Assembly (NCBI GenBank): GCA_020632575.1
Contig: JACKFH010000012.1
Span: 1 to 64,000, forward strand
Reading direction: 5' to 3'
Source: Candidatus Omnitrophota bacterium
GTDB taxonomy: Bacteria > Hinthialibacterota > Hinthialibacteria > OLB16
DNA length: 64,000 nt
Shown: positions 19,138-54,546 of the stretch, one piece after another
Layout: each line of letters starts with the position of its first letter
How positions within the stretch are numbered: position 1 is the first letter of the stretch
Program-made: the position numbers and the translations under genes
The notes under the pieces: generated by a model
The model's database searches: none
The model's input: only the letters and a program-made list of their open reading frames with translations
Told to the model about the DNA's origin: nothing

Positions 19138-19194
19138 TTCATTGTTGTTCCACTTCCACCCTGGTCCAGGGTCTTCCTTATCCCGACCTCGGGA

Positions 19195-24647: not shown

Positions 24648-24822
24648 CTTTCCACCGAAAACGTTCGCAAGTTATACAAGAAACATGGATTGCCAACAAT
24701 GGGTGGGGAATCCATCGAAGACAGCCCTTTGACCCTGGAAAAAAGAGGCCTGGATTGGTACGATTAAATGGTGTCCCGTCGTGGGACAATTTACATGAGT
24801 TATTTCCAGGAGTTAAAGAACC

Positions 24823-25143
24823 ATGATAGCGATCACTGAAGGGGCTGCGAGCGAGGCCAAAAGACTGATGGAACAGGAAAACCTGCAGGAATATGTTCTC
24901 CGTGTCGGAGTGCAAGGCGGAGGTTGTTCCGGCCTATCCTACACCCTCGGTTTCGATAACACGGTCAACGACACCGACCACATCATGGAGGATCATGGCA
25001 TCCGTCTTGTTTGCGACAACAAGAGCATGCTCTACCTTAATGGGGCCGTGTTGGATTATTCCAGCGATCTCATGGGCGGCGGGTTCAAGTTCAACAACCC
25101 CAACGCCAAAACCACCTGCGGTTGCGGAAGTTCTTTCGCCTAA
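24823..25143 (+). CDS. erpA: Iron-sulfur cluster insertion protein (HesB/IscA/ErpA family)
   Basis: 106 aa. Has the GGGCSG motif and the C-terminal CGCGSSF motif characteristic of A-type carriers. Confidence 0.75.
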   Translation: MIAITEGAASEAKRLMEQENLQEYVLRVGVQGGGCSGLSYTLGFDNTVNDTDHIMEDHGIRLVCDNKSMLYLNGAVLDYSSDLMGGGFKFNNPNAKTTCGCGSSFA

Positions 25144-25173
25144 ACGGATAACCCGCTCATCCACCAAACCAAC

Positions 25174-25209
25174 AAAAAAAGGAGGGGGATTTCTCACCCC
25201 TCCTTTTTT
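25174..25209. terminator. Bidirectional rho-independent terminator
   Basis: AAAGGAGGGGG-loop-CCCCTCCTTTTTT hairpin flanked by A-runs and T-runs, between convergent erpA and the DUF1080 gene. Confidence 0.6.
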
Positions 25210-25235
25210 CATTTAATTAGAGAGCCGTAAGTCAA

Positions 25236-25877
25236 TCAGTCCGGAAGAACCTTCACACGAATGTTCTTATAGAAAACCTTGCTATTCGGGTCGTGGGCCT
25301 GGATGGCGAAGGTCCCGCTCGAGAGATCCGTTCCTCGGGACCGATGATCCAATTCGGCCTTATCCTTCTCATCGTATTTGGCGCAGGTCTTCCCATTGAT
25401 TTGAGTTTCGATCGTCTTACCTTTGACAATGATTGTGTACTCGAACCATTCATTGTCCTTGGCCGGAGCCTCCAGGACTTTGACCGTGTCGTAGATCCCA
25501 GCAGTCTTCTGCGGATCCCCCTGGGTGTTGTTCACCTGACACTCGTATCCGTAGTTCGGCCAATCATCCTTCTGATATTTGGTGTGAATGTAGAGCCCCG
25601 AGTTCGAGCCTTTGGTGGTCATCACATCGGCTTTCAGGATGAAATTCTTGAAATTATGGTTTTCGACCGGTCCCTCGTAAAACAAATGCGCGCGAGCTCC
25701 ATTGGCGACAATTTGACCATCCTCCACCCTGAATGAATCGGGGTGGTCTTCGCTGACCTTCCACCCATCCAATGATTTACCATCGAAAAGCGAGATCCAT
25801 CCTCCATCCGAATCGCCCGCGGCGAACGCGCCGGTCACGATCATGAGGGAGAACGCTATGCAAAAGAACTTCTTCAT
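25236..25877 (-). CDS. Secreted DUF1080 (3-keto-disaccharide-hydrolase-like) protein
   Basis: Internal Met at 25877 is preceded by GGAGGA. Signal peptide, then the GWISLFDGKSLDGW motif typical of DUF1080 (the LamG-like jelly roll). Confidence 0.6.
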   Translation of the reverse strand: MKKFFCIAFSLMIVTGAFAAGDSDGGWISLFDGKSLDGWKVSEDHPDSFRVEDGQIVANGARAHLFYEGPVENHNFKNFILKADVMTTKGSNSGLYIHTKYQKDDWPNYGYECQVNNTQGDPQKTAGIYDTVKVLEAPAKDNEWFEYTIIVKGKTIETQINGKTCAKYDEKDKAELDHRSRGTDLSSGTFAIQAHDPNSKVFYKNIRVKVLPD

Positions 25878-25942
25878 GAGTGTTCCTCCATACAATAAAT
25901 TGGAACAGGATTATAAGCCCAATCGATGGATTGGGAACAGAC

Positions 25943-26122
25943 TCATGGGGCCATGTCCTCTCCCTCGCATTCTTCGCTGGACTTCTCTCGTTTCCGTTTG
26001 GCCACAGCGCGTTTGAGGAGGTACTCGATCTGGCCGTTGACGCTACGAAGTTCCTCATCCGCCCAACGGTTGATCTCTTCCCACAGATCTGGATTGATTC
26101 TCAGGAGGAATTTTTTCTTCAA
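25943..26122 (-). CDS. Unlisted small ORF: Arc/MetJ-type ribbon-helix-helix DNA-binding protein (59 aa)
   Basis: TTG start at 26122 lies 6 nt after GGAGGA. Translation: MKKKFLLRINPDLWEEINRWADEELRSVNGQIEYLLKRAVAKRKREKSSEECEGEDMAP. The RINPDLWEEI...RSVNGQIEYLL pattern matches the Arc-like domain (beta strand, then two helices). Confidence 0.5.
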   Translation of the reverse strand: MKKKFLLRINPDLWEEINRWADEELRSVNGQIEYLLKRAVAKRKREKSSEECEGEDMAP

Positions 26123-26223
26123 TGAGATTCCTCCCGATTCCGATTTTGATTCAGGTTCATTGGTTCTTTCGTTTTCTTACCTCTACCGACCAATTCAGTC
26201 GGTCTTCTTCCGGCCCCCTCCGT

Positions 26224-26293
26224 GTCATTCCTACGAAGGCAGGAATCCAGGGGGCAGGCCCCGGCCCTGGATACCCGCCTCTGCGGGTATGAC
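26224..26293. repeat. Palindromic intergenic repeat, family 2 (copy B)
   Basis: Arms GTCATTCCTACGAAGGCAGGAATCC and GGATACCCGCCTCTGCGGGTATGAC around a different 20-nt centre. Confidence 0.7.
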
Positions 26294-26377
26294 GCATTCG
26301 GTTTCCTTTTACTAATCAGCGGCCGCCTGCTGCACGCTCGGAATGACACCATTTGGAGTGGGGTAAGAGGAATGAAA

Positions 26378-27271
26378 TTACCCATACAGAGTCCCGGTAT
26401 TGATCACGGGGTGCGCCTCACGCTCTCCGCACAGGACGACCAGGAGGTTGCTGACCATCGAGGCCTTCTTCTCTTCGTCCAGTTCGACCACGCCTTCTTT
26501 TTCCAATCGTTCCAAAGCCATTTCGACCATTCCGACCGCTCCATCGACAATGGTCTTTCTGGCCGAAACGATTGCCGAGGCTTGTTGCCGTTTGAGCATG
26601 GCCTCCGCAACCTCCTGGGCGTAGGCCAAATGGGAGAGTCTCGCCTCTTCCACAATGACTCCGGCTTTCCAGAGTCTTTCGGTCAATTCTTTTTCGAGCG
26701 CCTCGGACACTTTGTCGATATCCCCTCGGAGAGAAACGGTGTCCTCGGTCTCTTCCCATGAGTCGTAGGGATAGGAACTCGCCAGGTGGCGCAACGCCGA
26801 TTCGCTTTGGGTTTGAACGTAGTACTCATAGTCGTCGACATCGAATAGCGCCGAATAGGTGTCTTTCACCCGCCAGACCACAATGAGCGCGATCTCGATT
26901 GGATTGCCCGTGTAGTCGTTCACCTTGAGTCGCTCGCCGTTGAGGTTTCTGGCCCGCAGAGAGATGTTCCACTTGGACATCAGTGGATTCACCCAATAGA
27001 AACCGTTCTTTTTCACCGACCCCTTGTAGTTTCCGAATAGCACCAGCACCCCCGCCTGATTCGGTTGCACGATCATGAAACCCACCGAGACGAAGATCGC
27101 CAGCAACAGAAGGAATATCGATCCGCCCACCATCCAGCCACCCCATGGCGCTCGGCGCTCGAGTCCCATGACCCCGTCGATGAACAAGTAGATCGACAAA
27201 AGATACATCGCAATGTTAATCGCCAACATCAACCAACCAGACAACGCCTTCCTCTCAATTTCCTGTGTCAT
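26378..27271 (-). CDS. SPFH/band-7 (stomatin-like) membrane protein
   Basis: Internal Met at 27271 has GGAGGT 8 nt upstream. Two N-terminal TM helices are followed by an SPFH domain. Confidence 0.65.
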
Positions 27272-27377
27272 GATGTCTGACCTCCGACATTTCATTAAAG
27301 TAGGTAAATGATATCACAATGATTTTACATTACAATCTCTCTTCAGAAACCTCGGCCATTCGAGTAAGCCATCAGTC

Positions 27378-27447
27378 GTCATACCCGCGCAGGCGGGAAT
27401 CCATGGGGGAGAGACCGGCTGTGGATACCCGCCTGCGCGGGTATGAC
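27378..27447. repeat. Palindromic intergenic repeat, family 2 (copy C)
   Basis: Arms GTCATACCCGCGCAGGCGGGAATCC and GGATACCCGCCTGCGCGGGTATGAC around a third, different 20-nt centre. Lies in the divergent promoter region between the SPFH gene and algI. Confidence 0.7.
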
Positions 27448-27555
27448 GGTTATGAGTGGCGGAAATGAAGGGTATGGGCGCCCATTCTTTTCTTCGCTCT
27501 TTACCTGATTGGCGAAAACCGGGAATAATCCCCCCTCTTTCATATCGATCTCATT

Positions 27556-29094
27556 ATGGTCTTCAGCTCAATTACGTTCCTTTTCCTATTCCTACCGGTC
27601 GTCCTGGTCCTCTATCATCTGCTGTTTTTGCCGGTGACCCTGGGTTGGCATTCGTCCTTTTGGCGGCGAGCGAGCAATTGTTTCCTACTTCTCGCCAGCC
27701 TTCTCTTTTATTTCTGGGGGGAGGATTACCTGGTTTGGATCATCGTCACCTCGACCCTGATCGATTATTTTTGCGGTCTCTTGATTGCAGGGGGACTGGG
27801 GGGTGGGGAGATCCACCGCCTGGATCCAAATCGAAAAAGGACGGCCCTTCAGAAATTTGGCCTTATCTTCTCGATCTGTTCCAACCTCGCCTTTCTTGGG
27901 TTCTTCAAGTACTTCAACTTTGGGATCTACAACTACAACCGCGCGATGGGCGCATTCGGTTTGGAGAGCCTCCAGTGGCTGGATGCCGCGTGGATCGCGC
28001 TTCCATTGGGAATCAGTTTCTACACCTTCCAATCGATGAGTTACACGATCGATGTCTACCGGGGCGAGGTGAAGGCGACGCGGAATCTGATCGACTTCGC
28101 CTGCTATGTGACCATGTTCCCCCAGCTCGTGGCCGGACCGATTGTCCGATACCGCGATGTCGCTCGAGAACTGGTTTCACGGAGAATCACTTCGGAGGAG
28201 TTCGCTTCCGGAGTCAGCCGTTTCATCATTGGGCTCGCCAAGAAAGTGCTGATTGCAAACACGGTGGCGGTCGGCGCGGATCAGGTCTTTGCTCTTCCCG
28301 ATAGCGAACTCACTTTCTCATTGGCCTGGTTCGGAGTGATTTGCTACACGCTCCAGATCTATTTCGATTTCTCCGGTTATTCCGACATGGCGATCGGCCT
28401 CGGTCGGATGTTCGGTTTCAATTACCTGGAGAATTTCAATTACCCCTACATTGCCCAATCCATTCAAGATTTCTGGCGGCGCTGGCACATCTCCCTTTCG
28501 ACCTGGTTCCGTGACTATCTGTACATCCCTTTGGGCGGCAGTCGGGGGTCGGGGGCTCGAACCTATTTCAACTTAGTCACGGTCTTCTTCCTCTGCGGGT
28601 TCTGGCACGGAGCAAGTTTCACCTTCATCGCGTGGGGGCTATATCACGGTTTTTTCCTGGTCATCGAGCGGGTCGGGCTCTTGCGGTTTCTATCCAGAAT
28701 GCCGAGAGGCGTTCGTCACGCCTACGCGGTCCTTGTGGTCATGGGGGGGTGGGTGCTCTTCCGATGCGCCGGAAAGTTCGCGCAGGCGATCGCTTTTTAT
28801 CAGGCCATGATCGGAATGGGGCGGGGAACCGGTGAGCAGTATGGACTCGACATCGTCATGACCGCCGATATTGCCCTCGCCATCCTCCTCGGGATCCTAT
28901 TTTCGGCGCCGGTTCTTCCTTACCTCCACCAATGGATTCGAGATCGAATCCACAGTTCGGGATCTGTCGGGAGAATTTTGGGTGAAGCGGGTTTTTCGAG
29001 TCTCCGAGTGATCGGTCTGGCAACGCTATTTGGATTGAGCGCGATGTGGCTTTCCGCAGGGACCCACAACCCGTTCATCTATTTCCGGTTCTGA
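27556..29094 (+). CDS. algI: MBOAT-family membrane O-acyltransferase (AlgI/DltB-like)
   Basis: 512 aa, polytopic. Conserved MBOAT His (FWRRWHISLSTWFRDYLY) and FWHGASF motifs. Confidence 0.8.
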   Translation: MVFSSITFLFLFLPVVLVLYHLLFLPVTLGWHSSFWRRASNCFLLLASLLFYFWGEDYLVWIIVTSTLIDYFCGLLIAGGLGGGEIHRLDPNRKRTALQKFGLIFSICSNLAFLGFFKYFNFGIYNYNRAMGAFGLESLQWLDAAWIALPLGISFYTFQSMSYTIDVYRGEVKATRNLIDFACYVTMFPQLVAGPIVRYRDVARELVSRRITSEEFASGVSRFIIGLAKKVLIANTVAVGADQVFALPDSELTFSLAWFGVICYTLQIYFDFSGYSDMAIGLGRMFGFNYLENFNYPYIAQSIQDFWRRWHISLSTWFRDYLYIPLGGSRGSGARTYFNLVTVFFLCGFWHGASFTFIAWGLYHGFFLVIERVGLLRFLSRMPRGVRHAYAVLVVMGGWVLFRCAGKFAQAIAFYQAMIGMGRGTGEQYGLDIVMTADIALAILLGILFSAPVLPYLHQWIRDRIHSSGSVGRILGEAGFSSLRVIGLATLFGLSAMWLSAGTHNPFIYFRF

Positions 29095-29104
29095 GGAAAC
29101 GAGC

Positions 29105-30283
29105 ATGGATCGAATAGCCCACCGGATCGAACGTTTCACACAATGGCTGATGATCATCGGCTTCATGGTTCTCCTATGGGCGCCCCTGTCGGATCAGGTT
29201 TTCGATTGGGGACCGAAGATCGACCTGGGCGAGAAACGGAACTTGGCGGGTTTCGCCTCCCTTGAGAATGTGTCTGTGGCCGAATTCCCCGACGCTTTCG
29301 AGAAGTACTATGACGACCAGTTCGGTTTGCGGTCGATGCTTGTGCGAGGCTACCGATTGATCACCAGCCGTCTCCTCGGCCTCTCGACTGAGAAAGTGCT
29401 CATCGGCGAAGACGGCTGGCTCTATTACTCGGGTCCGGTCATCGATGATTTCATGGGGCGGCGAGAGAGTCCCTACGATCACTTTGACCGTTGGAAGGAC
29501 AAACTGGAAACCTGGACCGACTGGTTTACCGAAAGGGACATGACCTACCTTTTCGTCGTTGCTCCCAACAAGGTCACCATCTATCCCGAACATCTCCCCG
29601 AACGGTACCGCAAGCGAGCGGGAAGGACTCGCATGGACCGTCTAAAAGAATACTTGGCGGAGAATTCCAGAGTCCCCCTGTTCGACCTGCGCGAACCCAT
29701 GCGTGAGGCCAAGGACCTCGGCTTGGTCTACCACCCCAACGATTCCCACTGGACCGACCTCGGCGCCTTCATCGCTTTCCAAGAAATCTGTCGGGAGATC
29801 TCATCCGCCACGGGCGTAAATATGGATTGCGGCTCGATAGAGGACTATCGATTCGTAAACCAGGTTCATGAGGGTGACCTAGGGGAAATGATCGGTTTCG
29901 GAAAGGCTTTTTCGGTCGATTCCCTCACCCTCGAACCGAAGACCCCCTTCCACCAAGCGCAATATATGGACCGCCCCGAAGGCGCCGATTGGCTCTGGCA
30001 TGGAATGCTTCTCAAGGAGAATCCCGAGAAGACTGGAAAACTCCTGGTCTTCCACGATTCCTTCACCCGGCATGGCCTCATCGACTTTCTCGGCGAGCAA
30101 TTCAATCGAAGCGTCTTCGTCTACCTCCGCCGACCCAGCTTCGAATCGGTTCGGTACATGGTCGAACGAGAAAAGCCGGATGTCGTCATCGAGGAAATGG
30201 CGGAGAGATTCTTGAGCCTTTGGCTTAAGGACGAGGACTTGTTCTATGAAGAGGATTCACAACCCAGAACGGAAGGGGAATAA
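29105..30283 (+). CDS. AlgJ/AlgX-like SGNH-fold O-acetyltransferase partner
   Basis: N-terminal TM anchor, then a periplasmic domain with the DSHWT motif of the AlgX/AlgJ family. Lies immediately downstream of algI, the conserved pairing. Confidence 0.6.
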   Translation: MDRIAHRIERFTQWLMIIGFMVLLWAPLSDQVFDWGPKIDLGEKRNLAGFASLENVSVAEFPDAFEKYYDDQFGLRSMLVRGYRLITSRLLGLSTEKVLIGEDGWLYYSGPVIDDFMGRRESPYDHFDRWKDKLETWTDWFTERDMTYLFVVAPNKVTIYPEHLPERYRKRAGRTRMDRLKEYLAENSRVPLFDLREPMREAKDLGLVYHPNDSHWTDLGAFIAFQEICREISSATGVNMDCGSIEDYRFVNQVHEGDLGEMIGFGKAFSVDSLTLEPKTPFHQAQYMDRPEGADWLWHGMLLKENPEKTGKLLVFHDSFTRHGLIDFLGEQFNRSVFVYLRRPSFESVRYMVEREKPDVVIEEMAERFLSLWLKDEDLFYEEDSQPRTEGE

Positions 30284-30299
30284 AGACCGGAAAAAGCCA

Positions 30300-30391
30300 T
30301 GGCGGAGGAGGGGGGATTCGAACCCCCGGTAGAGTTTTACCCCTACGACGGTTTAGCAAACCGCTGCCTTCAGCCACTCGGCCACCCCTCC
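30300..30391 (-). tRNA. tRNA-Ser (anticodon GCU), type II with long variable arm
   Basis: Reverse complement gives GGAGGGG...GGTTCGAATCCCCC...CTCCTCCGCCA. The anticodon loop TTGCTAA gives GCT. 3-bp D-stem, long variable arm, encoded CCA, 92 nt. Confidence 0.8.
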
Positions 30392-30610
30392 GCTGGGGTT
30401 TTGGAATATTCCAGCAATCCATTCCAATTGTCAATCATTTCACCAGAAACCTCCGATTCTAGCTGGATTATGGGGCCGAAAGAAAATTTCAGGGCCGGGA
30501 TTGAAAAATCTGTTTATTTTGAATAGTCTTGTTTTGGGGTTGGATGCCCTCGCCCGTCAATTTCCCCGGACTGCTCGCCGATTCATATCCATGGGTGGCG
30601 AAGGGGCATC

Positions 30611-30826
30611 ATGACACTGACTCAATTTGTGGTTGGGATTCTATTCGGGATCGTTCCTCTCCTGCTGGGGATGAAAATCAGAGACAATCCGGAATTGGTG
30701 GAGGAAATCGGCGCTTTCGGTTCATCCGGAAATTGGTCCGAATCCCATTCCAAACTACTGGCTTGGTTCCTGATCATGGTCGGGATTTTTGACCTCGTGC
30801 TCTTTTTCATCGATATGTCGGCTTAA
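30611..30826 (+). CDS. Hypothetical small membrane protein (71 aa)
   Basis: AAGGGG about 5 nt upstream of the ATG. Two predicted TM helices. No homology call possible. Confidence 0.3.
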   Translation: MTLTQFVVGILFGIVPLLLGMKIRDNPELVEEIGAFGSSGNWSESHSKLLAWFLIMVGIFDLVLFFIDMSA

Positions 30827-30887
30827 GCCCTAGACACAATCCTCCCATTCGTCCAACCATTAGACCTCGATTCTTGGAGGTCACACC

Positions 30888-31895
30888 ATGCTGTTCGTCC
30901 GCGTTACGATTCTCTGTTGCGTTCTCATTCTCTTCATTCCCCCATCAATCGGCGGCGGTTATCCAAAGATCAACCTCGCCATCGGTTACGAGGTCGACCC
31001 CGATTGGCCCGATCGCCCGGATGACATCAAGTGGCGTTACATGACCGGTGTGGCGGTGGACTCGCAGGACCGAGTCTGGACCCTTAATGCCATCGATCCA
31101 CCGGTGCAGGTCTATGACACCGAGGGGAATTTCATCAAATCCTGGGGGGAGGGGATGTTCAATAAACCCCACTTCATCCGGATCGACCCGAAGGGGTTTG
31201 TCTGGTGCGCCGATTATGGGAACCACACGGTTCGAAAATTCACTGAGGATGGCGAGCTGCTGCTGACTCTCGGCACGATGGACATGCCCGGCCGGGATGA
31301 GGACCACCTCAATCGCCCCACCGATGTGGCGGTCACCCCGGAGGGAGACATCTTTGTCACCGATGGGTATGGCAACAACCGGGTTGTCCACTATGACAAA
31401 GATGGAAATTTCATTAAGTCCTGGGGGGAATTGGGAATCGGCCCTGGAAATCTCAGCCAACCTCACAGTATCGCGGTCGACTCACGAGGACGCCTCTATG
31501 TCGGCGAACGGAACAACTGCCGCATCCAAATTTTTAATCAGGAGGGTGAATCGCTCGAGCAATGGCGCGATCTGATCAACCCCTGGGGGATTTGGATCAC
31601 GCCCAAAGATGAAATCTATGTCTGCGGGTCCTCGCCCGCGCGATGGACCGAGAAATGGAGCAATCTCGGAAACCCACCCACGAACCAACTCCTCCTGCGC
31701 CTCGATACCGAGGGGGTTGTCCAACAGATCTGGACCTTCCCGTTGGCCAAGGAGGGGGAACTCATCCCGGGAACGCTCGATTGGGCCCATGGCCTCGCGG
31801 TTGATTCCAAGGGCAACCTCTATATTGGGGACGTGGCCGACAACAGCCCGACTCACCGCGTGCAAAAGTTTGTCCGACTGGCCCCGGAAGATTGA
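30888..31895 (+). CDS. Secreted NHL-repeat beta-propeller protein
   Basis: Signal peptide, then repeated NHL-type motifs (FVWCADYGNHTVRKF, IFVTDGYGNNRVVHY, LYVGERNNCRIQIF, LYIGDVADNSPTHRVQKF). Confidence 0.65.
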   Translation: MLFVRVTILCCVLILFIPPSIGGGYPKINLAIGYEVDPDWPDRPDDIKWRYMTGVAVDSQDRVWTLNAIDPPVQVYDTEGNFIKSWGEGMFNKPHFIRIDPKGFVWCADYGNHTVRKFTEDGELLLTLGTMDMPGRDEDHLNRPTDVAVTPEGDIFVTDGYGNNRVVHYDKDGNFIKSWGELGIGPGNLSQPHSIAVDSRGRLYVGERNNCRIQIFNQEGESLEQWRDLINPWGIWITPKDEIYVCGSSPARWTEKWSNLGNPPTNQLLLRLDTEGVVQQIWTFPLAKEGELIPGTLDWAHGLAVDSKGNLYIGDVADNSPTHRVQKFVRLAPED

Positions 31896-31963
31896 TTCAG
31901 AAATGCCTACGCGATAATCACACTTTGTTTTTTTGATCCCGTTGCGGTTATCCGGTCTCGCTC

Positions 31964-32026
31964 GTGGGAGCGGCATCTTGCCGCGAATGAAAGACCCGCG
32001 ATTCGGGGCAGGGATGCCCCTCCCAC
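31964..32026. repeat. Palindromic intergenic repeat, family 1 (copy 2)
   Basis: GTGGGAGCGGCATCTTGCC...GGCAGGGATGCCCCTCCCAC. The 3' arm and core are identical to copy 1. The 5' arm carries two changes. Confidence 0.7.
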
Positions 32027-32073
32027 GGCACAAACGACACGCAAGAAATTAGACTTCAAAATTCACGAATCCT

Positions 32074-44595: not shown

Positions 44596-46026
44596 ATGTT
44601 CCCACATCGAATCGCGATCCTCCTCCTCGCTCTCGCTCTTCCCGCCCACTCCGCCACTTTGTTTGTCTCCCCCGATGGAACAGGCGCGGATGGCCTCTCC
44701 TGGAACACCGCCTTCCCCACCATCGGACAAGCCATTGTCGCCTCGACCACCGACGATGAAATCTGGATCAGGTCCGCGACCTATGTGGAAAACATCACCA
44801 TCGAGAGACCTCTGACTCTCCTTGGTGGATTTGTCGGGTCGGAAACGTTGGGACAACGAAATTCGAGGGACCCGAGTCAGCATCCCACAGTGATTGACGG
44901 GAACCGAAACGGTTCGGTGGTCAGAGCGAAGGGGCCGATCACTCTCGATGGGTTCTCCATCGTGAACGGGTTGGCGCGATTGGAGGACGGGGATCTGGGG
45001 TCTGGACTCCTCCTCTCCGATGCGACGGCGACACTCACTCGGTTGAAACTGTCCGGAAATGGAGAGTTCACTCGACGTCAAAGCAGTGGAGGAGGTGGAA
45101 TGTATGCTGAAAACTCGACTATTCGCATGACCGACTGCCTGATGACCAAGAACCTCGCCGGGGAGGGCGGGGGCGCTATGTTCACCGGTTGTGCAATCGA
45201 GGTGAGAGATTCGCTTATAGGATCGAACCGTGGTTGGATCGACGGAGCGGGACTTTACATCCGGGATGGATCGTCGGTCTTCCTTAACACGGAAATCTCC
45301 GACAATTTGGTGAATGGCGGGGATGGTGGAGGTTGTTACATCGAGTCCGGACATGCCGCCTTTCTTGGCTGTCAGTTTCTTGAAAACGTGGTCTACCATT
45401 TCTCTCCCGGGCCTCTCCCGGTTCCGTTTTTAGTCAAATTCGGTGGGGCGGTGGCCTGCTATCGGGTTGAGGAAGTTCGCTTTGTCAATTCGCTTTTCAC
45501 GGGGAATCGAGGCACGGGTGTGGGGCTCACGGCGGGCTCGGTATTGTACTCCAAGGATTCCGAACAGATTCACTTCACCCATTGCACCATCATTGCTCTC
45601 CAGTACGCCTCCTTTTCCGCACAGGACCAGCCGATCCATATCGAGAACAGCCTGGTTGTCGGCCAGGACTTAGACAGAATTCTCCAGCCAAGTCCCGTTT
45701 CTTACAGTCTCATCGAGGGTGGGCACCAGGGCGAAGGCAACATCGACGCCGATCCGTTGTTTGTCGATCCGAAGAACGGCGACTACCGACTGCGGTATGG
45801 CTCCCCCTGCATTGATGCTGGTGCAGAGACGGATCTGATGATCGACCTCGATGGGAACCCGCGCCCCGTGGATATCATCGGACTCGGGTGCGATGGACCC
45901 GACACTTTTGATATGGGGGCTTATGAGTTTCAATCGCCGCGATCGGATCTCAACGGGGACGGGTATGTGAACCACTTGGATTTGATGATCCTCCAACAGG
46001 ATTGGGGCAAGGTGTCCGGGCCTTGA
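44596..46026 (+). CDS. Secreted right-handed parallel beta-helix protein with C-terminal dockerin-like module
   Basis: Signal peptide, then GxxG/NxxG beta-helix repeats (pectate-lyase-like). The C-terminal DLNGDGYVNHLDLMIL is a dockerin/EF-hand-like Ca-binding repeat. Confidence 0.55.
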   Translation: MFPHRIAILLLALALPAHSATLFVSPDGTGADGLSWNTAFPTIGQAIVASTTDDEIWIRSATYVENITIERPLTLLGGFVGSETLGQRNSRDPSQHPTVIDGNRNGSVVRAKGPITLDGFSIVNGLARLEDGDLGSGLLLSDATATLTRLKLSGNGEFTRRQSSGGGGMYAENSTIRMTDCLMTKNLAGEGGGAMFTGCAIEVRDSLIGSNRGWIDGAGLYIRDGSSVFLNTEISDNLVNGGDGGGCYIESGHAAFLGCQFLENVVYHFSPGPLPVPFLVKFGGAVACYRVEEVRFVNSLFTGNRGTGVGLTAGSVLYSKDSEQIHFTHCTIIALQYASFSAQDQPIHIENSLVVGQDLDRILQPSPVSYSLIEGGHQGEGNIDADPLFVDPKNGDYRLRYGSPCIDAGAETDLMIDLDGNPRPVDIIGLGCDGPDTFDMGAYEFQSPRSDLNGDGYVNHLDLMILQQDWGKVSGP

Positions 46027-46138: not shown

Positions 46139-46739
46139 TAGCAATACAATTCCCCATCACAACTTACTCAGCATAACGAATAAAATCATTATGACGACCG
46201 CGACCAAAAAAGTTCCGTAAGCAAGCGCGACTATTCTGTCACCTTTAGGGAAAACATGGGTGGTCCTGCTGACGAGGTCCCGGTATTCTTGAAACTCGGT
46301 CCATCCCTCGTGTGAGGGTGAGTCGAGGTCGAGGAACTCTCCGCTGCTTGTATCGAATGCTGACCAATTGTTTTGCTTTGCACAAATTCGCGATCGATGT
46401 GATGGGGTCTCCGCCCCCTCGAACGTGAAGCATCATCGTAGCCGTCTCGCCTGTCTCCTGGTGGTTGAACTCGATCGACCAACCATCGCCTTGAAGAACC
46501 CCCCAAGCCGGGTCGCTCCAATCCACCCCGGGTTCAGAGACTCCTTGAGACCTTTTCACGTATCTCGGCAGGCGTCACCCATTGCTGGTGGATCGTTGAA
46601 AGCATCCGACAGATCATCCGTATCGGGGGATCGCCCTGGAAATTGTCGAGAAAGATACGACATCCCAACGTAGATCTTTTCTCCTCCGGACAATGATTTG
46701 CAGTTCAGCACCAATCCTCAACTTGACCCCTTTGATCGG

Positions 46740-47185
46740 ATTTGATCGTCCAAGGAAAGAGGAGGGACTTGCTGCCTGCGCCGAGATTCCCTTCTCGGCG
46801 CAACTTTAGCAGGAATCCCTTCCTGCGAAACGGACCCTCTTCCTTAATCCTCCAATTCAAACCTCCGGCGAGCGACAGCACGAAGGGATTCGTGCGGAAG
46901 TGGGTTCGAGATGGGAATCTCGAACCAGATCCTTTGAACCGCGAATCGTCTGAGTCCGTTTCAACGGACGGCTCTCTGCGTAGCGACGGAATTGATTCCG
47001 TCGCGGACTTCGCTCGATCCCGAAGACTCCATCGCCTCCCACGCCCCGCTCACATCGGAACGGATTCCGACGTGGGATAGGAACGAGGCGGGAGCCACGT
47101 TCCAGCAACTACCAGGGTTTCAACCCTGGGCGACCGACCACACCCCAACAGGTTCCCCCGCCAAAAGTTTCCGTTTACTCTCCCA
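46740..47185. other. Hairpin-dense non-coding region (candidate structured RNA / long 5' leader) upstream of the oxidoreductase-radical SAM cluster
   Basis: Contains at least 7 perfect stem-loops. Examples: GCGCCGAGA-N6-TCTCGGCGC; GCAGGAA-tccc-TTCCTGC; GGTTCGAGAT-ggga-ATCTCGAACC; CGACGGAA-ttga-TTCCGTCG; TCGGAA-cgga-TTCCGA; CCAGGG-tttcaa-CCCTGG. No credible ORF. Confidence 0.3.
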
Positions 47186-47212: not shown

Positions 47213-48631
47213 ATGGCACGGAGCGTCATTTTGGGGGCGGGGGTGGCTGGGCTGGCGGCTGCTTACCATTTGCAGCGTCTCGGTGAAAAAGACCCCCTTG
47301 TCCTCGAGAAAAACCCATACCCCGGCGGCCTCGCCGCCACCATGGAATGGAACGGTTGCCGAATGGACCTCGGCCCTCACCGTATCCATACGGTCTACCC
47401 GCGCGCCGATGAACTGATCACCGAAATGGTCGGCGAGGACCTGATCGTCCGCAAACGGACCAGCCAGATCTTTCTCGATGGTCAGTGGATGGATTACCCC
47501 CCACGCGCCGGGGAGATGTTCCGAAAACTCGGCCTGCTCACCGCCGCGAAGATCGGCCTTTCCGCTCTTCAGGGCAAAGTTCGCGGTCTCAAGAACAAAG
47601 TCACCGGGAATCCCCCCGAAAGTTATGGGGACTACCTCGCTGAAAGGTTCGGCCCCTATGTCCGCGAACTCATCTTCGATCCGTTCGCCCTGAAGGTCTA
47701 TCGCGAGGAGGCGGATGACCTCGATGTCATGGTGGCCAAAGTGCGCCTCGCCAGCCAGGGGATATTCTCCATGCTCAAAGAGGCGATCACCGGGAAGACG
47801 GCGTCCGCAGTCAAGAAATTTCGGTATCCCAAACAGGGCATGGGATTGATTTCCGCCCGCCTCCAACAGCATATCGAGAAAGAGGGCGGGGAAGTCCTCC
47901 TCGGCCACGAGGCGACTCGAATCCGCCACACCGGCGGGCTGGTTCGATCCGTGGAATTCGAGGATCCCAATGGCGAGAAGATGTCGGTCGAGGCCTCGCG
48001 TGTCATCACCACGATCCCGCTACCCATCCTGGTCGACCTCCTTGAACCGAAACCGAACCAGGCTGTCCGAGACGCCGCGGAGAATCTCACCTACGCGGAC
48101 TCCTTTTTGGTCTACACCCTGGTCAACCGGAAACCATTGACCCCCAACTGCTGGATGTATTTCCCGGGGGATGAAACCGTCTTCAGCCGGGTCTATGAGA
48201 TCTGCCACTTCTCCCCCGAAATGACCCCGGAGGGCCAGAGCTGCCTCTGCGCCGAAATCCCCGCTCGGCCCGCCGATCCCGTTCAGTTCACCGATGAGGA
48301 GGACCTGAAACAGCGGGTTTGGGAGGGGTTTGTCGAGACCGGGATGGCGAGAGACGCCGAATGCATCGATCAGGTTGTCCTGAAAATCCCACGCGCCTAC
48401 CCGATCTACCGCAAGGGGTATAAGGAAGATCTCGGAACCATCCTCGAACACCTATCAACCCTCGGAAACCTAATTAGCACCGGACGCCATGGCCTCTTCC
48501 ACTACAACAACAGCGATCACAGCCTGGAAATGGGCCGTTTAGCCGCCGAATACGCCCGTCAAACCCCCGAAAAAAGCGAGGGTTGGTACAGTAAACGAGA
48601 TGAGTTTGACCGATACCGAATCGTGGATTAG
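47213..48631 (+). CDS. FAD-dependent oxidoreductase (amine-oxidase / protoporphyrinogen-oxidase / phytoene-desaturase-like superfamily)
   Basis: ATG at track 47198+15, after AGGGAA. N-terminal Rossmann motif VILGAGVAGLAAAY...LEKNPYPGG. Confidence 0.7.
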   Translation: MARSVILGAGVAGLAAAYHLQRLGEKDPLVLEKNPYPGGLAATMEWNGCRMDLGPHRIHTVYPRADELITEMVGEDLIVRKRTSQIFLDGQWMDYPPRAGEMFRKLGLLTAAKIGLSALQGKVRGLKNKVTGNPPESYGDYLAERFGPYVRELIFDPFALKVYREEADDLDVMVAKVRLASQGIFSMLKEAITGKTASAVKKFRYPKQGMGLISARLQQHIEKEGGEVLLGHEATRIRHTGGLVRSVEFEDPNGEKMSVEASRVITTIPLPILVDLLEPKPNQAVRDAAENLTYADSFLVYTLVNRKPLTPNCWMYFPGDETVFSRVYEICHFSPEMTPEGQSCLCAEIPARPADPVQFTDEEDLKQRVWEGFVETGMARDAECIDQVVLKIPRAYPIYRKGYKEDLGTILEHLSTLGNLISTGRHGLFHYNNSDHSLEMGRLAAEYARQTPEKSEGWYSKRDEFDRYRIVD

Positions 48632-48706
48632 ACTAAGCCTCGACGAAGGCATCCTATCGTCCCATTTTGATTGGGTTTATTGCTGAATCGATCATTTAGA
48701 ACCACC

Positions 48707-50141
48707 ATGCGCGGAAATGAAATCAAAACAGCTTTTCTAATTGTCCCCCCACGGGAAAAATCATCCGGGAGGAGCGCTGCCAGACCCCCATCGAGGGTCT
48801 GCACACAGTCGCCCTGCGCCCGCCGATGGACCTCCTCTACATGGCGGCGGTCCTCGAACAAAACGATGTGAAGTGCACACTCATCGACTACCCCGCTCAG
48901 GACAAGGATTGGGAGGATTTGGAGGAGGATCTCAAACGCCTTCGCCCCGACCTCTTCCTGATTTCAATCACCACCCCGACTCTCGACCGCGACCTCCGCG
49001 CCGGGAAACTGGCCAAGACAATTCGCCGTGACACCTTAGTCGGAGTCAAAGGCGCCCATTTCTGGCGGGATAACCCAAGAATTCTTCTCAAATACCCGAT
49101 GCTCGATTTCGCCATGATGGGCGAATATGAGGAAACCATCGGAGAGTTCGTCACCAAACCGGATTGGAAGGAAGTTCCGGGCCTCATCTACCGCGATCAG
49201 GGCGAGGTCCATTCGACCGGCAAACGGGAACTGGTCCAGAACCTGGACGACATCCCCTATCCCGCGCGTCATCTGATCAAAAATTCAGTTTACATCCGCC
49301 CGGATACGGGGGAACTCCAAACCACCATTGTCACAAACAGGGGCTGCCCCGAGAATGCGTCTTCTGCCTTGCCCCGCGTGTGAGCGGTCGCGAGAACCGC
49401 AGACGTTCCATCCCGAACATCATCGGTGAACTGGAAAACTGTGTGAAACAACACGGCATCCGCAATTTCCTATTCCGGTCTGACACCTTCACCCTCGATC
49501 CCGACTGGGTGATTCGCCTCTGCAATGGAATCCAACGCGCGGGCCTCGACATCAAATGGTCCTGCAACAGCCGGGTCGACACTCTGAGCGGAGAGGTCCT
49601 CCGGGCCATGAAGGATGCTGGCTGTTGGATCATCTCCTTCGGCATCGAGAGCGGCTCCCAAGAGGTGCTCGACCTCATGAAGAAGGGCATCACCAAGGAT
49701 CAGGTCCGCGCCGCCCTCAACCTCTGCCGGGTGGAGGGCATTCTCTCCTCCGTCTATTTCCTGATCGGCGTCCCCTGGGAGTCGGAAGAAACCTTTCGAG
49801 AGACCCTGGATTTCGCTCGTCAGATCGATCCGGATATCGTTGAGTTCTTCTATGCCTACCCCTTCGAGGGGACCGAAATGTATGTGACCGCCGCCAATGA
49901 GGGACTGATCGAGCGCGGCGATTTCCCCATCAGCGCCTACTCCAAACCGGCGATGCCCACCAAGCACCTGTCGATGGAGCGCCTGGAGGGGATGAGAAGC
50001 GAGGCTCTCAAGGATTTTTATTTGCGTTGGCCGGTGATCTCCCGTACCATAAGAAGGGCGAGATCGCCTAAAGTTTTTCTGAATTACGCTCGATTTGGGA
50101 TGGCGCAACTGACGGATCTGGTCACCACCCAAAGGAATTAA
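48707..50141 (+). pseudogene. B12-binding radical SAM enzyme, paralog 1, disrupted by two -1 frameshifts in poly-C tracts
   Basis: The N-terminus MRGNEIKTAFLIVPP (48707) continues in another frame as PTGKIIREERCQ...PPMDL after a C6 run (48745-48750; C7 expected). A second shift at a C4 run (49347-49350; C5 expected) splits TNRGCP | RECVFCLAP, the CxxxCxxC radical SAM motif. With both fixed, the product aligns end-to-end with paralogs 2 and 3. Confidence 0.6.
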
Positions 50142-50143
50142 AG

Positions 50144-51601
50144 TTGAAAATGAAAAGGCACAAAATCCTCCTGCTCAATCCCCCGGGGCAACACCGATAC
50201 ATCCGGGATTACTACTGCAGCCATATCTCGAAGGCGAACTATATCTGGCACCCCTACGATCTTTTTGTTCAAAGCGGGATTCTGGGCGAACAACACGATC
50301 TCGTCGCCTTCGACGCCAACATCGACAACACGACCCCCGAGCGCACGGCCCAGTACTTGAGCACGCTCGATTTCGACACCGTTTTGATGCTTTCCGGAGC
50401 CGTCTCCTGGAAGAGCGATCTCGGATTCGCCAAAAAGTATCTACAGGACAAGACGCTCATCGTCTCCGGCGACATCACCATCGCGAATGGGCGTGACTTG
50501 ATGGACCGGTATCCTTTCATCGACGCCACCCTCCAAGATTTCACCCAACCCGGAGTCCACCAATTCTTGGAGCAACTCGATGAAAATGGCGGCGGCCCCC
50601 TAAAAGGGAACACTCCCATCCAAGGCATCACCTATCGCAATTCCGACGGCGAATTCGTCGACGGGCCCGTTTATCCGGCCTACGGTCATTTCACACATCC
50701 CGCTCCGAAATACGAACTTTTCCCTTGGAAGAAATACCGGGTCCCCCATGCTCGCAAGGTTCCGTTCGCCTCGATGCTCACCGACTTCGGGTGCCCCTAT
50801 CACTGTAACTTTTGCATCACTGGAACATTTGGTTACCGCATGCGAGACCTCGATAATGTCGAGATGGAACTGAACTATCTGAAGACTCTTGGCATCGAGG
50901 ACATCTGGTTCAAGGATGTCGTCTTTGGAGTCAACAAACGGCACTATTACGGTCTCCTTGAACTCCTCAAGAAACCCGAACACAAGTTCCGCTGGGCGAC
51001 TCTCTCCCGTGTCGATGTGGTCACCGACGACATCTTGGTGAAGATGGCCGAGGCGGGTTGCCACACCATCCAATTCGGAGTCGAGAGCAGCGACCCCGAC
51101 ATCTTGGAGTCGATCGAAAAGGGAATCAGCCCCGAACGTGTCAAAGAGGTCTTTAATCTCTGCCGCAAACTCGGCATTCGGACCTTGGCGCATTTCATTA
51201 TCGGCCTGCCCGGAGAGACCATGGAGACCGCGAAGCGAACCATCGACTTCGCCCTCGACATCGACCCCGATTTCGCCTCCTTCAATGTGGCCTCGCCCCG
51301 AGTGGGGACGCCCTTACGGGATGAGGCCATCGAAAAAGGCTATATTTCGGACGAATTGACAGAACTCGATAACTCCATCACCTTTCCCACGATGGATTTG
51401 GGGACATTGTCCAAGGAGGATGTGTGGAGGTTGAGGAGCGAGGCGGTTCGCCGTTTCTATCTTCGTCCCTCTTACCTCTACCGCAGGCTCACCGGAGTTC
51501 GATCGTTCCGTGAGTTGACCAATTCGATTTTCGAAGGAACCAACTTGGTGGTGAATTCTCTGAATCCGAAACCCGACCCGGCGGAGATGGTTGAGGTTTG
51601 A
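50144..51601 (+). CDS. B12-binding domain radical SAM enzyme (class B), paralog 2
   Basis: N-terminal cobalamin-binding-like Rossmann domain (KILLLNPP...), then a radical SAM core with FGCPYHCNFC and an Elp3-type TIM barrel. 485 aa. Starts 3 nt after paralog 1. Confidence 0.75.
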   Translation: MKMKRHKILLLNPPGQHRYIRDYYCSHISKANYIWHPYDLFVQSGILGEQHDLVAFDANIDNTTPERTAQYLSTLDFDTVLMLSGAVSWKSDLGFAKKYLQDKTLIVSGDITIANGRDLMDRYPFIDATLQDFTQPGVHQFLEQLDENGGGPLKGNTPIQGITYRNSDGEFVDGPVYPAYGHFTHPAPKYELFPWKKYRVPHARKVPFASMLTDFGCPYHCNFCITGTFGYRMRDLDNVEMELNYLKTLGIEDIWFKDVVFGVNKRHYYGLLELLKKPEHKFRWATLSRVDVVTDDILVKMAEAGCHTIQFGVESSDPDILESIEKGISPERVKEVFNLCRKLGIRTLAHFIIGLPGETMETAKRTIDFALDIDPDFASFNVASPRVGTPLRDEAIEKGYISDELTELDNSITFPTMDLGTLSKEDVWRLRSEAVRRFYLRPSYLYRRLTGVRSFRELTNSIFEGTNLVVNSLNPKPDPAEMVEV

Positions 51602-51642
51602 TTGCCTCCATCGCCGTCTTGAACAACATCTCGAGGAATAGA

Positions 51643-53007
51643 ATGAACTGGAATTTTTGTCGTCATTATCGCTGTGTCTTAACCTGTCTTCTGCTGGCGC
51701 TTGTTGTCGGCTGCGGAAAGCCTTCGCCGGATGAGCTTCTGCAAGAAGGCATCGAACTCATGCGTCAACAAAACTTCGTCTCCGCGCGCCATCGGTTCCA
51801 AGAAATCGCCGACAACTATCCGGACTACGATCTTATTTCGACCGTCAAGTTGAATATCGCGGACTGTTACGCTCTCGATGGCCAGCTCGGCAAAGCGCGA
51901 ACCGGGTACGAGGAGGTGGCCGAGACTTACAAGGGTCAGTTTACCGCTCAGCTGGCCGAGGTCAGACTCGGAGACATGGCCAAACAAGAGGAGCGTTACG
52001 ATGACGCCGAGAGCCGATACCGTTCGGTCATCGCGGAATGCACCAATCCTCGTCTGCTTATGGACACTCGCCAAAACTTGGCCGATCTTTATGTGGTCAC
52101 AGAGCAGCTTCCCAAGGCGGTCGACGCTCTAAAGGAGATGGTGGACGCTTCCCCGGATTTTCCGAACAAACTCCGGACGACTCAAACCCTCGCGAATTTT
52201 CTCATCGCGAAAGGTTCGCCCGAACAAGCCTGGACCGCCATGCTTTCGATTCCCGAGGCGACCGGATTCGAGAGAGCGAAGGACGCCTATTATCTTTCGA
52301 TCCGTCAGACCGGCATCGCCACCAAGAAGTATGACAAGGCTTCTCAGTATTTTGACGATCTCCTTAAGAGCGCCACTGATGACGATGGAAAGGCGTTGGC
52401 GCTTTATAACAAAGCGTTGATTGCCACCGCCACGACTATCAGTCGGGCGACCGGGGTTCAAATGCTTGAGGATCTCGCCAAGGAATACCCGAAAACCCGT
52501 TGGGGACGTTGGGCGGAGGTTGACGCGGCCAAGACCATTATTACCGCCAGCGACGAGTTCGATAACCCGATGGATCTTGCGGGACAACTCCTTCGCGACG
52601 CCGAGGACAATTACGATGACATCATCGCTGACACCACGGTCGAATGGTTCGAGCCCGCCAAATCCGCCAATGCGCGCTTCCAAAAAGGGGTGATTCAGGT
52701 GATGCGGGGACAGCTCCTGGAGGATATCGATGACTTGAAATCCGCCAGCCAAACCTACGCAGAGATCATCGACCGATTTCAGACCATGCCCCAGATCGCC
52801 CAACAGGCCAACGCTTACCTCCAACAGATGGCCGCGATGGTCGATATGGCCGAGGCCAGCGGTGAGGAGTTTTGGGAACAACTTCGAATGATCCGCGCGG
52901 GCGTGGACCCCTTCGCCCAGAGCGCCACCGCCGAGGCCATTCTTCCGGGGGCGACCGAGGAAATCGCCGCCGAATCGATGCCGGCCACCGGGGAGTCGAA
53001 GGAGTAA
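51643..53007 (+). CDS. TPR-like repeat lipoprotein
   Basis: Lipoprotein signal with lipobox LLALVVGC (Met at 51643). Helical TPR-like repeats throughout. Sits between radical SAM paralogs 2 and 3. Confidence 0.55.
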   Translation: MNWNFCRHYRCVLTCLLLALVVGCGKPSPDELLQEGIELMRQQNFVSARHRFQEIADNYPDYDLISTVKLNIADCYALDGQLGKARTGYEEVAETYKGQFTAQLAEVRLGDMAKQEERYDDAESRYRSVIAECTNPRLLMDTRQNLADLYVVTEQLPKAVDALKEMVDASPDFPNKLRTTQTLANFLIAKGSPEQAWTAMLSIPEATGFERAKDAYYLSIRQTGIATKKYDKASQYFDDLLKSATDDDGKALALYNKALIATATTISRATGVQMLEDLAKEYPKTRWGRWAEVDAAKTIITASDEFDNPMDLAGQLLRDAEDNYDDIIADTTVEWFEPAKSANARFQKGVIQVMRGQLLEDIDDLKSASQTYAEIIDRFQTMPQIAQQANAYLQQMAAMVDMAEASGEEFWEQLRMIRAGVDPFAQSATAEAILPGATEEIAAESMPATGESKE

Positions 53008-53031
53008 GGGTTTCTCGAAGAATCAACCGCC

Positions 53032-54546
53032 ATGATGAAAGAAGTCGAAATCCTCCTGATTCAACCGCCTACCGGCTCGTACCGGCGCGATGACCGTTGT
53101 CAATCGCGGGTGGAGGATCAGACCATCCAAGTCAGTTTCCCCCCCATGGACCTTGCTCATCACGCGGCGGTGCTCGAGGAGGCCGGTTTCCAATGCGCGG
53201 TTCGAGACTATTCCACGGCGGGTGTCGGCGTTCGGACCGCGCTGGATGAGATTCGAGCGATGGCGCCGAGGTTGGTGTTCTTTTCCTCGACTCAGCCGAC
53301 CGAGCGAGATGATTTGGCTTTCTCGAAAAAGATCAAAGAGATATCCACCGAAACTAAGATAGTTCTCAGAGGGGAATCGGTCACTTTCCGGGACTCCCAG
53401 ATTCTGGAAGCGAATCCCCAAGTCGATTTCATCCTTCGTGGAGAATCCGAGGAGACTCTCCTCGATCTGTGTCACTCTCTTTTTCGAGATTCGGAAAAGG
53501 GAGTCGACGAGATTGCGGGCGTTTCTTTTCGGTCGGACCGTGAGATCGTCCGCACCGCGGACCGCCCGTTCATTAAAAACCTGAACAATCTCCCTTGGCC
53601 CGCGCGCCATCTTCTCGATCAATCGCTCTATCGGAGCCCCGAGACCGGGAATGTGTTGACGACTCTCTACACCGCGAGAGGCTGCCCCTACCCCTGCATT
53701 TTTTGTCCCGCCCCGATTGCTTCCGGTCGACCCGTTCGAATGAGAGATGTCCCCGATCTGATTCGTGAGATCCAGCACTGCGTTTCGGAGTACGGGATCT
53801 CCGAGTTTCTTTTTCACGGGGACACCTTCACCTACAAGAAGGCTTGGGTGCTGGAACTTTGCGACGCCATCCAAAAGGCCGGACTCAAAGTCCGCTGGGG
53901 GTGCAATAGCCGAGTCGACACGATCGACGAAGAGATGCTCTCCGCCATGAAAAAGGCGGGCTGTTGGGTGATTGGGTACGGAGTCGAAAGCGGCCACACC
54001 GAGACTCTGGACAAGATCCGCAAATATGTGGAAAGGGATAAGATCGTCAGCGCCTTTCAAATGACTCGTAAGGCGGGCATACGTTCCCATGCTTTCTTTG
54101 TCTTCGGATTTCCCTGGGAGAATTGGGAGCATCTCGAGGAGGACCGGAAACTAGCCTTGGAAATCGACCCGGACTTCTTCGACCTCAACATCGCCTATCC
54201 GCTCCCTGGCACCGACCTCGAAAAGATGGTCCAGGATCAAGGTCTCTACGATTCCAACCTGGTCGACCAAGGCGGTTATGCCGTCCCGGCCACTCGAACC
54301 GAGCACCTGAGCGCTGAGGAACTCGACGCTTGGAGGAAGAAGACCCTTCTCGCGCTGTATTTAAGACCGCGCTATATCCTCCGGACCCTCTTGCTCGCGG
54401 GATCGCCAAAGAAAACCTGGAATTATTTCAAGGCGGGAACCACTCGGTTTTTCCAACTCATTCGACCCCGGGAACATGCGGTTCCCGTGCGCAACCGTCC
54501 GGAACCCACTCCTCCGACTCCGAAACCGTCGGTCGAAAGTGTCTGA
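53032..54546 (+). CDS. B12-binding domain radical SAM enzyme (class B), paralog 3
   Basis: ILLIQPP N-terminus and an ARGCPYPCIFC cluster. Aligns along its whole length with paralogs 1 and 2. 504 aa. Confidence 0.75.
   Translation: MMKEVEILLIQPPTGSYRRDDRCQSRVEDQTIQVSFPPMDLAHHAAVLEEAGFQCAVRDYSTAGVGVRTALDEIRAMAPRLVFFSSTQPTERDDLAFSKKIKEISTETKIVLRGESVTFRDSQILEANPQVDFILRGESEETLLDLCHSLFRDSEKGVDEIAGVSFRSDREIVRTADRPFIKNLNNLPWPARHLLDQSLYRSPETGNVLTTLYTARGCPYPCIFCPAPIASGRPVRMRDVPDLIREIQHCVSEYGISEFLFHGDTFTYKKAWVLELCDAIQKAGLKVRWGCNSRVDTIDEEMLSAMKKAGCWVIGYGVESGHTETLDKIRKYVERDKIVSAFQMTRKAGIRSHAFFVFGFPWENWEHLEEDRKLALEIDPDFFDLNIAYPLPGTDLEKMVQDQGLYDSNLVDQGGYAVPATRTEHLSAEELDAWRKKTLLALYLRPRYILRTLLLAGSPKKTWNYFKAGTTRFFQLIRPREHAVPVRNRPEPTPPTPKPSVESV

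Follow-up and report, generated by a model that had tools for sequence, protein, structure and literature searches.

Two single-base deletions private to one record split a conserved B12-binding radical SAM gene in a Candidatus Omnitrophota contig: local assembly error or very recent pseudogene

The window, namely the whole 64,000-nt stretch of DNA that was analyzed, belongs to a 140,176-nt NCBI MAG contig labelled Candidatus Omnitrophica/Omnitrophota. It was found that positions 48707..50141 (+) of the window hold a single gene spread over three reading frames, and that two 1-nt additions to this region give a 478-aa B12-binding radical SAM protein (hereafter rSAM1). Both deletions are private to one record. 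Every related genome is intact at this gene, which leaves two explanations, a commonplace assembly error and a pseudogene that arose very recently in this strain only, and not a phase-variation switch. We lean, with restrained confidence, towards a local assembly or consensus error confined to this MAG contig, the 478-aa rSAM1 of the organism being intact.

Organization of the split gene and its operon

The starting frame of the gene opens with an ATG at 48707 and ends at a stop at 48869–48871. In a second frame, one base back, homology runs from 48751, reading TGKIIREERCQ...TNRGCPE, and this frame meets a stop at 49381–49383. A third frame, one further base back, continues the homology from 49356, beginning with CVFCLAP..., to the native stop at 50139–50141. 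The parts of the gene are as follows:

48707..48751 (+): rSAM1 codons 1–15, MRGNEIKTAFLIVPP, in the starting frame; P0124 and P0125, two intact conspecific proteins, begin identically
48743..48754 (+): frameshift site 1, GTCCCCCCACGG, with a C6 run at 48745–48750 and a lone A at 48751, from alignment to L023, L046, L002, L045 and L047
48751..49355 (+): rSAM1 residues 16–216 and two bases of Lys217, one frame back; B12-binding domain (PF02310) and linker
49347..49358 (+): frameshift site 2, CCCCGAGAATGC, within the CX3CX2C cluster motif, with a C4 run at 49347–49350; one A of a Lys codon is absent
49356..50141 (+): rSAM1 residues 218–478, two frames back from the start; remaining radical SAM core (PF04055) and C-terminal part

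After repair, rSAM1 contains no in-frame stops. The repaired 478-aa protein aligned end to end with the paralog encoded at 53032..54546 (39% over 470 aa, E 1e-121) and showed 27% identity to the paralog encoded at 50150..51601. It had 1,777 database protein matches, the best of which were single ORFs of 474–478 aa with 90% and 74% identity. Since the alignments with paralogs and orthologs are far beyond chance, the split is judged to be genuinely present in the sequence and not a chance pattern. The original prediction had described a split gene with these C6 and C4 runs that becomes full-length, resembling paralog 3, when one base is restored at each place; this much of it agrees with the alignments.

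The B12-binding domain PF02310 was detected at residues 39–148 of the repaired protein (48.5 bits vs. a cut-off of 32.1) and the radical SAM domain PF04055 with 90.5 bits. The CX3CX2C motif, which reads GCPEKCVFC in all relatives, is severed in the window by frameshift site 2, and the deposited sequence keeps two of the three cluster cysteines in any one frame. HpnJ (TIGR03471) was the best profile match, covering residues 43–451, with a score of 217.7 bits vs. the NCBIfam equivalog cut-off of 577.6 bits. BchE (TIGR02026) scored 144 bits vs. an equivalog cut-off of 481 bits, and no hopanoid genes were seen within the window. Because the matches to HpnJ, BchE and AprD4 lie far below the family cut-offs, rSAM1 is not to be filed under any of these names. 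Judged from its sequence, it is a class-B (B12-binding) radical SAM enzyme, and no substrate is assigned to it here. The other genes of the operon are intact:

47213..48631 (+): FAD-dependent amine-oxidase-like oxidoreductase, MCB9768928.1; the upstream operon gene
50150..51601 (+): paralog 2 (rSAM2), class-B-like radical SAM protein, MCB9768931.1; its start lies 8 nt past the stop of the broken gene
51643..53007 (+): TPR protein; a 454-aa gene is called at this place in L003, L022 and L024
53032..54546 (+): paralog 3 (rSAM3), B12-binding radical SAM protein, MCB9768933.1; contains a C7 run at 53139–53145

In all, the block 47213–54546 comprises a PRK07208-like FAD amine-oxidase/phytoene-desaturase-like protein, three class-B-type radical SAM paralogs and a TPR protein. 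The five-gene block also shows a sub-threshold likeness to HpnJ and to the TIGR04072 "lipid biosynthesis B12-binding/radical SAM" family.

Identification of the missing bases

Conspecific contigs (96–99% nucleotide identity) were found through exact-protein look-ups of the neighbouring genes. They came from the NCBI MAGs L002 (GCA_020430065), L023 (GCA_020430205), L022/L036 (GCA_020632615), L024/L037 (GCA_020430105), L025 (GCA_020430165) and L047 (GCA_020430075) and from the ENA assemblies L045 and L046. The species is also present in assemblies of the runs SRR12358675 and SRR12358676 and of the samples SAMN083892xx. Site 1 is covered by L002, L023, L045, L046 and L047 and site 2 by L002, L022, L023, L024 and L025 (eight contigs overall). 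All five contigs covering site 1 and all five covering site 2 are in frame, as are five remoter relatives, L001 and L004–L007.

At site 2, the nearest haplotype (L024) reads CCCCGAGAAATGC, and the window reads CCCCGAGAATGC. The CCCC is kept in 5/5 conspecifics, which have CCCCGA[A/G]AAATGC: the sequence is CCCCGAAAAATGC in L002, L022, L023 and L025 and GAGAAATGC in L024, the local haplotype of the window, vs. GAGAATGC in the window itself. By this alignment, the lost base is an A of the A3 run of the Lys codon, now AA at 49354–49355. The original prediction had placed one C deletion in each of the two C tracts. For site 2 this is wrong, the CCCC being retained in every conspecific, and restoring a C there gives CPRECVFC (GCPRECVFC), whereas every ortholog has CPEKCVFC.

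At site 1, the nearest haplotypes read GTCCCCCCAACGGGA vs. GTCCCCCCACGGGA in the window. The intact conspecifics carry GTCCCCCCAACGG, GTACCCCCAACGG or GTCCCTCCCACGG at this site, and two haplotype families can be distinguished, GTCCCTCCCACGGGC (L002, L045, L047) and GT[C/A]CCCCCAACGGGA (L023, L046). The window has the flanking alleles of the L023/L046 family and one A fewer. As these alleles are shared, the loss of one A from CCAACG at 48751 is the simplest change and the most likely one on the aligned haplotypes; the predicted C deletion, which would require an ancestor with C7, is unlikely. Intact L023, L046 and L001 have a C6 or C5 run here (GTCCCCCCAACG, GTACCCCCAACG, GTACCCCCCACG), and since both L023 and L001 carry C6, a run of this length can stand in an open frame.

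Neither the C6 nor the C4 tract differs in length between the window and intact relatives. The description that suits both events best, as far as the alignments go, is a single-A loss, from an A2 run at site 1 and from an A3 run at site 2. The account of two poly-C slips dissolves once relatives of the same haplotype are aligned.

Conservation and selection

All rSAM1 orthologs were found to be single ORFs of 474–478 aa. The amino acid identity was 92–93% for OFTM149 (L004), 90% for the Logan contig L001 and 72–73% for L005–L007, including Hinthialibacteria OLB16. The five-gene order FAD oxidoreductase–rSAM1–rSAM2–TPR–rSAM3 is kept in the remoter relatives, down to 66–75% identity, with the L001 contig showing only the first three operon genes because it ends in rSAM2. 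A comparison of orthologs for conserved frameshifts, proposed in the original prediction as a sign of a genuine pseudogene, revealed none: five of five conspecifics per site and five remoter relatives are intact.

Between the repaired window gene and that of L002 there are 28 differing sites, of which N4I, mapping to the L002 side, is the one that is not synonymous. In a set of six conspecific sequences, the changes private to the window are the two deletions and three clustered synonymous substitutions at 49401, 49406 and 49418. The dN/dS values of rSAM1 were 0.015 vs. L002, 0.007 vs. L023, 0.058 vs. L001 and 0.023 vs. L004, equal to or below those of the intact flanking genes. Thus, no relaxed selection or further decay was found (dN/dS 0.007–0.015 with private substitutions synonymous), and the pattern of substitutions indicates strong purifying selection on rSAM1 that has lasted to the present.

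The two other radical SAM paralogs are 27–39% identical to rSAM1. Being ancient at this level of identity and co-retained, they are not redundant copies. The predicted recent inactivation of a redundant paralog keeps a substantial probability as regards a recent inactivation and is weakened as regards redundancy, because of the 27–39% identity, the conserved five-gene order and dN/dS values (0.007–0.06) like those of the neighbours.

Deposited proteins and privacy of the deletions

The genes neighbouring rSAM1 match MCB9768928.1, MCB9768931.1, MCB9768933.1 and MCB9768940.1 exactly. The broken gene itself was deposited as two proteins:

48841..49383 (+): MCB9768929.1, 180 aa, "cobalamin B12-binding domain-containing protein"; exact match
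49380..50141 (+): MCB9768930.1, 253 aa, "radical SAM protein", with a GTG start

MCB9768929.1, with its frameshift-specific tail, forms a singleton cluster among ~15 billion proteins, and none of the other fragment variants of the broken rSAM1 that were looked up in this collection is on record. A search with the 180-aa fragment returned only the window's own protein, and one with the 94-aa frameshift-specific fragment returned no candidates; the word index used is insensitive to short queries. Scanning JGI metagenome contigs for both sites, with or without the deletion, gave 0 matches. No independent assembly carrying either lesion was found, nor were there literature matches to the assembly accessions.

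These records deserve a data-quality flag, as they present one conserved 478-aa enzyme as MCB9768929.1 and MCB9768930.1, two proteins that look unrelated and from which wrong domain architectures can spread into databases. A further entry, MCB9782472.1 (299 aa, not flagged as partial), is an N-terminally truncated call of rSAM1 in L022 (GCA_020632615.1, JACKFG010000007.1). It was considered as a second frameshifted copy and rejected, since the 141-kb contig ends 20 nt upstream of the call. It is another database entry that misrepresents the rSAM1 enzyme.

Search for further frameshifts

A codon-usage frame scan of the window revealed no other unexplained same-strand frame switch. The switches at 19.2–21.5 kb (Band7 and an upstream ORF), 41.1–41.8 kb (csrA/fliW), 43.7–44.3 kb (FA hydroxylase and ABM), 54.6–55.5 kb (PRTase and an unknown gene) and 57.2–59.5 kb (DUF6807 and an unknown gene) were examined as candidates and rejected, as each corresponds to separate genes. 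Approximately 27 kb of the window could be aligned to conspecific contigs, and no other frame-breaking indel was found there. The indels present in this comparison were an in-frame one of 18 nt, non-coding 1-base indels at 31976 and 47090 (poorly aligned contig edges) and a shared A3/A4 difference. The window contains 58 homopolymers of at least 6 nt, 16 of at least 7 nt and 17 C runs of at least 6 nt, and none of them causes a frameshift; about 55 other genes of the window are clean. The frame scan and the ~27-kb alignment agree with the predicted lack of other frameshifted genes, and the 58 in-frame homopolymers with the view that the assembly is not globally error-prone. With the window otherwise free of frameshifts, a platform-wide homopolymer problem is ruled out, and any error must be local.

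Strain mosaic around the lesions

The window and L002 show 0 differences over 48069–48716 and 48757–49178, 5 SNPs in 48717–48756 and 22 in 49179–49481. Patches with ~9% divergence from L022 were found at 49236–49619 and 50179–50716, and haplotype sharing changes every 100–300 nt among all assemblies. Each of the two gaps lies 1–2 nt from a conspecific SNP, with a position-wise chance of 0.15 and 0.22; this proximity statistic is post hoc and moderately strong (joint ~0.03). Site 2 is located in the most SNP-dense 100 nt of rSAM1 (top 2.8%). The 141-kb contig of L022 (GCA_020632615) ends at window position 49223, and L024, L025, L002, L045–L047 and the 897-nt contig of P0128 all start or end within or beside rSAM1.

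The whole region 48717–50716, which includes rSAM1 and the first third of rSAM2, consists of mosaic patches of 100–500 nt with 8–9% divergence in genomes that are otherwise ~99% identical. The mosaic differences in rSAM1 are nearly all synonymous. Such a mosaic is due either to strong purifying selection acting on a lineage that often recombines with a diverged one or to a chimeric strain consensus in all of the MAGs compared here.

Between the stop of rSAM1 and the start of rSAM2, the 7–8-nt spacer (50144–50149) contains A4 in the window, L024 and L025 vs. A3 in L022 and L023, and this polymorphism is linked to the downstream haplotype. The additional A at 50147 was considered as a third private A-indel, which was rejected as it is common to L024 and L025. 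Its presence in several assemblies makes it a real polymorphism.

Other strain-variable features of the window

A 12.9-kb segment, 19038–31991, is bounded by an exact 37-nt direct repeat at 19001–19037 and 31992–32028; at lower identity the repeat extends to ~65 nt, and it is partly palindromic. In the conspecific L026, this segment is missing and one copy of the repeat stands at the junction. The segment contains genes for SPFH/Band7, PspA, a sigma-54 activator, MoxR, MBOAT and an AlgX-like acetyltransferase and an NHL protein, together with tRNA-Ser(gct) at 30300–30391, and no integrase. This arrangement suggests a repeat-mediated deletion/insertion polymorphism or else a collapsed assembly of L026.

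Directly upstream of the operon, a region of ~0.9 kb (46150–47050) has no ORF of at least 120 aa and a low coding score. It is absent from all conspecific contigs, which diverge from the window at 46141 (L026), 47049 (L023, with an IS200-like Y1 transposase instead) and 47136 (L002). The region contains a 45-nt imperfect inverted repeat (46782–46826 / 46878–46922), and an Rfam search of it gave no match at the gathering threshold. This region is a strain-variable junction. In addition, an 18-nt in-frame indel vs. L026 was noted at 44620, in the leucine-rich signal-peptide region of a beta-helix/dockerin-like protein (44596..46026).

Origin of the deletions

A platform-wide homopolymer error (454, Ion Torrent, nanopore or similar), by which C6/C7 and C4/C5 tracts would have been shortened, is improbable. 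Both gaps do fall within or next to low-complexity runs (CCCCCCA at site 1; GAAAAA or GAGAAA in relatives at site 2), but C4 is the same in all intact conspecifics, C6 occurs in intact L023 and L001, and the affected runs are merely A2 and A3. Nor does any run of at least 6 nt (58) or at least 7 nt (16, including the C7 of paralog 3) shift a frame, and the ~27 kb compared with conspecific contigs are likewise free of another such indel. Of the predicted homopolymer error, an error as such remains the somewhat more probable reading, and the homopolymer form is weakened because the lost bases lie in A2/A3 runs. Slipped-strand phase variation, in which the poly-C tracts would serve as a contingency on/off switch, had been predicted as another option and is very improbable. 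In its favour are the C6 at site 1 and the location of the gene in a strain-variable locus. However, tract length is equal in the ON relatives and the OFF copy (C6 in L023 and L001; C4 in all) with the missing bases mapping to A runs, site 2 is outside any C tract, and two separate shifts would both have to revert. Unusually long homopolymers (typically 7–8 nt or more) are expected of a contingency locus, and all 16 runs of at least 7 nt are elsewhere, the C6 being one of 17 C runs of at least 6 nt in the window. Phase variation is rejected because the tracts match those of intact relatives in length and are short and ordinary. Still less weight, close to none, can be given to recoding at both sites by programmed −1 ribosomal frameshifting or transcriptional slippage. 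Site 1 is formally a slippery heptamer (C CCC CCA), and a −1 slip there would lead to the orthologous ...VPPTGK..., but site 2 (CCC GAG AAT GCG) has neither an X XXY YYZ heptamer nor a long A/T run, and its failure destroys the cluster motif whatever happens at site 1. Recoding is rejected because site 2 is non-slippery and no relative has either shift, so that the signal is not conserved in orthologs.

A local assembly error would have the following course. rSAM1 lies in a strain-heterogeneity hotspot, and the contig would have been carried through it where other assemblies break. Two spots beside strain SNPs would have ended one base (A) short in the contig, and one enzyme would thereby have been annotated as a 180-aa "B12-binding protein" and a 253-aa "radical SAM protein". 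We infer that the deletions are absent from the cells. This explanation is favoured by the open frames in 5/5 conspecifics per site and in five remoter relatives, by the singleton status of MCB9768929.1 among ~15 billion proteins, by the otherwise almost entirely synonymous change of rSAM1 vs. conspecifics (dN/dS 0.007–0.015) and by the SNPs adjoining the gaps at a locus where other assemblies fragment. Local assembly errors that corrupt gene sequences have been documented in uncurated short-read MAGs, and 13 such errors were reported in one curated 1.13-Mb genome (PMC7111523). Against an error it can be said that the remaining window is clean, so the error would be strictly local, and that two lesions in one gene are the classic signature of a real pseudogene. 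Pure de Bruijn assemblers output only k-mers present in reads; for two deletions without read support to arise, coverage would have to be very low or a consensus, polishing or gap-filling step would have to be involved.

The alternative, less probable but still substantial, is a genuine pseudogene, very recent and private to the strain, or a consensus that joins two null alleles present at low frequency in the population. One A would have been lost at CCAACG and one at GAGAAATGC, with two paralogs and the remainder of the operon persisting. Two independent lesions in one gene, when ~55 other genes and 58 homopolymers of at least 6 nt are clean and ~27 kb show no other frame-breaking indel vs. 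conspecific contigs, are in keeping with a gene that decays once it has been hit. The population is highly polymorphic or recombining at this locus, and the A3/A4 indel at 50147 is real. Against a pseudogene are the intact copies in 5/5 conspecifics at each site and in five remoter relatives and the absence of any nonsynonymous change or further lesion in the window lineage (dN/dS 0.007–0.015). A second indel arising before any neutral substitution would have a chance of ~10%, as estimated from typical indel-to-substitution ratios. Moreover, the paralogs are not redundant (27–39% identical, all three retained in order at 66–75% identity), and both gaps lie right beside strain SNPs, a placement not expected of random mutation. 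If the lesions were real, site 2 would sever CX3CX2C and no fragment would keep the three cysteines, so that no [4Fe-4S] cluster would be bound and the enzyme would be null. A conserved radical SAM operon would then have undergone an unremarkable loss of function private to one strain. That the deletions are real and one strain in a heavily recombining Omnitrophota/Hinthialibacter-like population has just lost the first of its three class-B radical SAM enzymes is rather unlikely; in that case, the SNP-dense mosaic would reflect diversifying pressure on the operon pathway, and the operon may act in lipid or envelope modification.

Comparison with known systems

Phase-variable contingency genes, e.g., in Neisseria, Haemophilus and Campylobacter, carry homopolymeric poly-G/C tracts. 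rSAM1 is like them in having a frameshift that adjoins a poly-C run within the first 50 nt of the ORF. Unlike them, it has a tract of 6 nt with no length polymorphism in five conspecifics per site, and its second shift lies outside a C tract.

The repaired protein has in common with HpnJ, BchE and AprD4 (PDB 6fd2) an N-terminal B12-binding domain and a radical SAM core with CX3CX2C. It differs from HpnJ and BchE in scores far under their cut-offs and in being encoded in a conserved five-gene block.

With ordinary bacterial frameshift pseudogenes rSAM1 shares more than one lesion per gene, intact neighbours and full-length orthologs. The differences are that rSAM1 shows no relaxed selection, that its lesions are unshared and that its paralogs are distant (27–39%) and not close copies.

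The local assembly errors of MAGs were described by Chen, Anantharaman, Shaiber, Eren and Banfield (2020, Genome Res, PMC7111523). That class of errors is defined by the absence of perfect read support (PMC7111523), whereas the rSAM1 lesions are judged from assemblies. The likeness is that a small lesion is limited to one assembly and lies in a strain-variable region, of the kind in which assemblers stop or choose among variants (PMC7111523); for rSAM1, the outcome is two deposited proteins for one enzyme.
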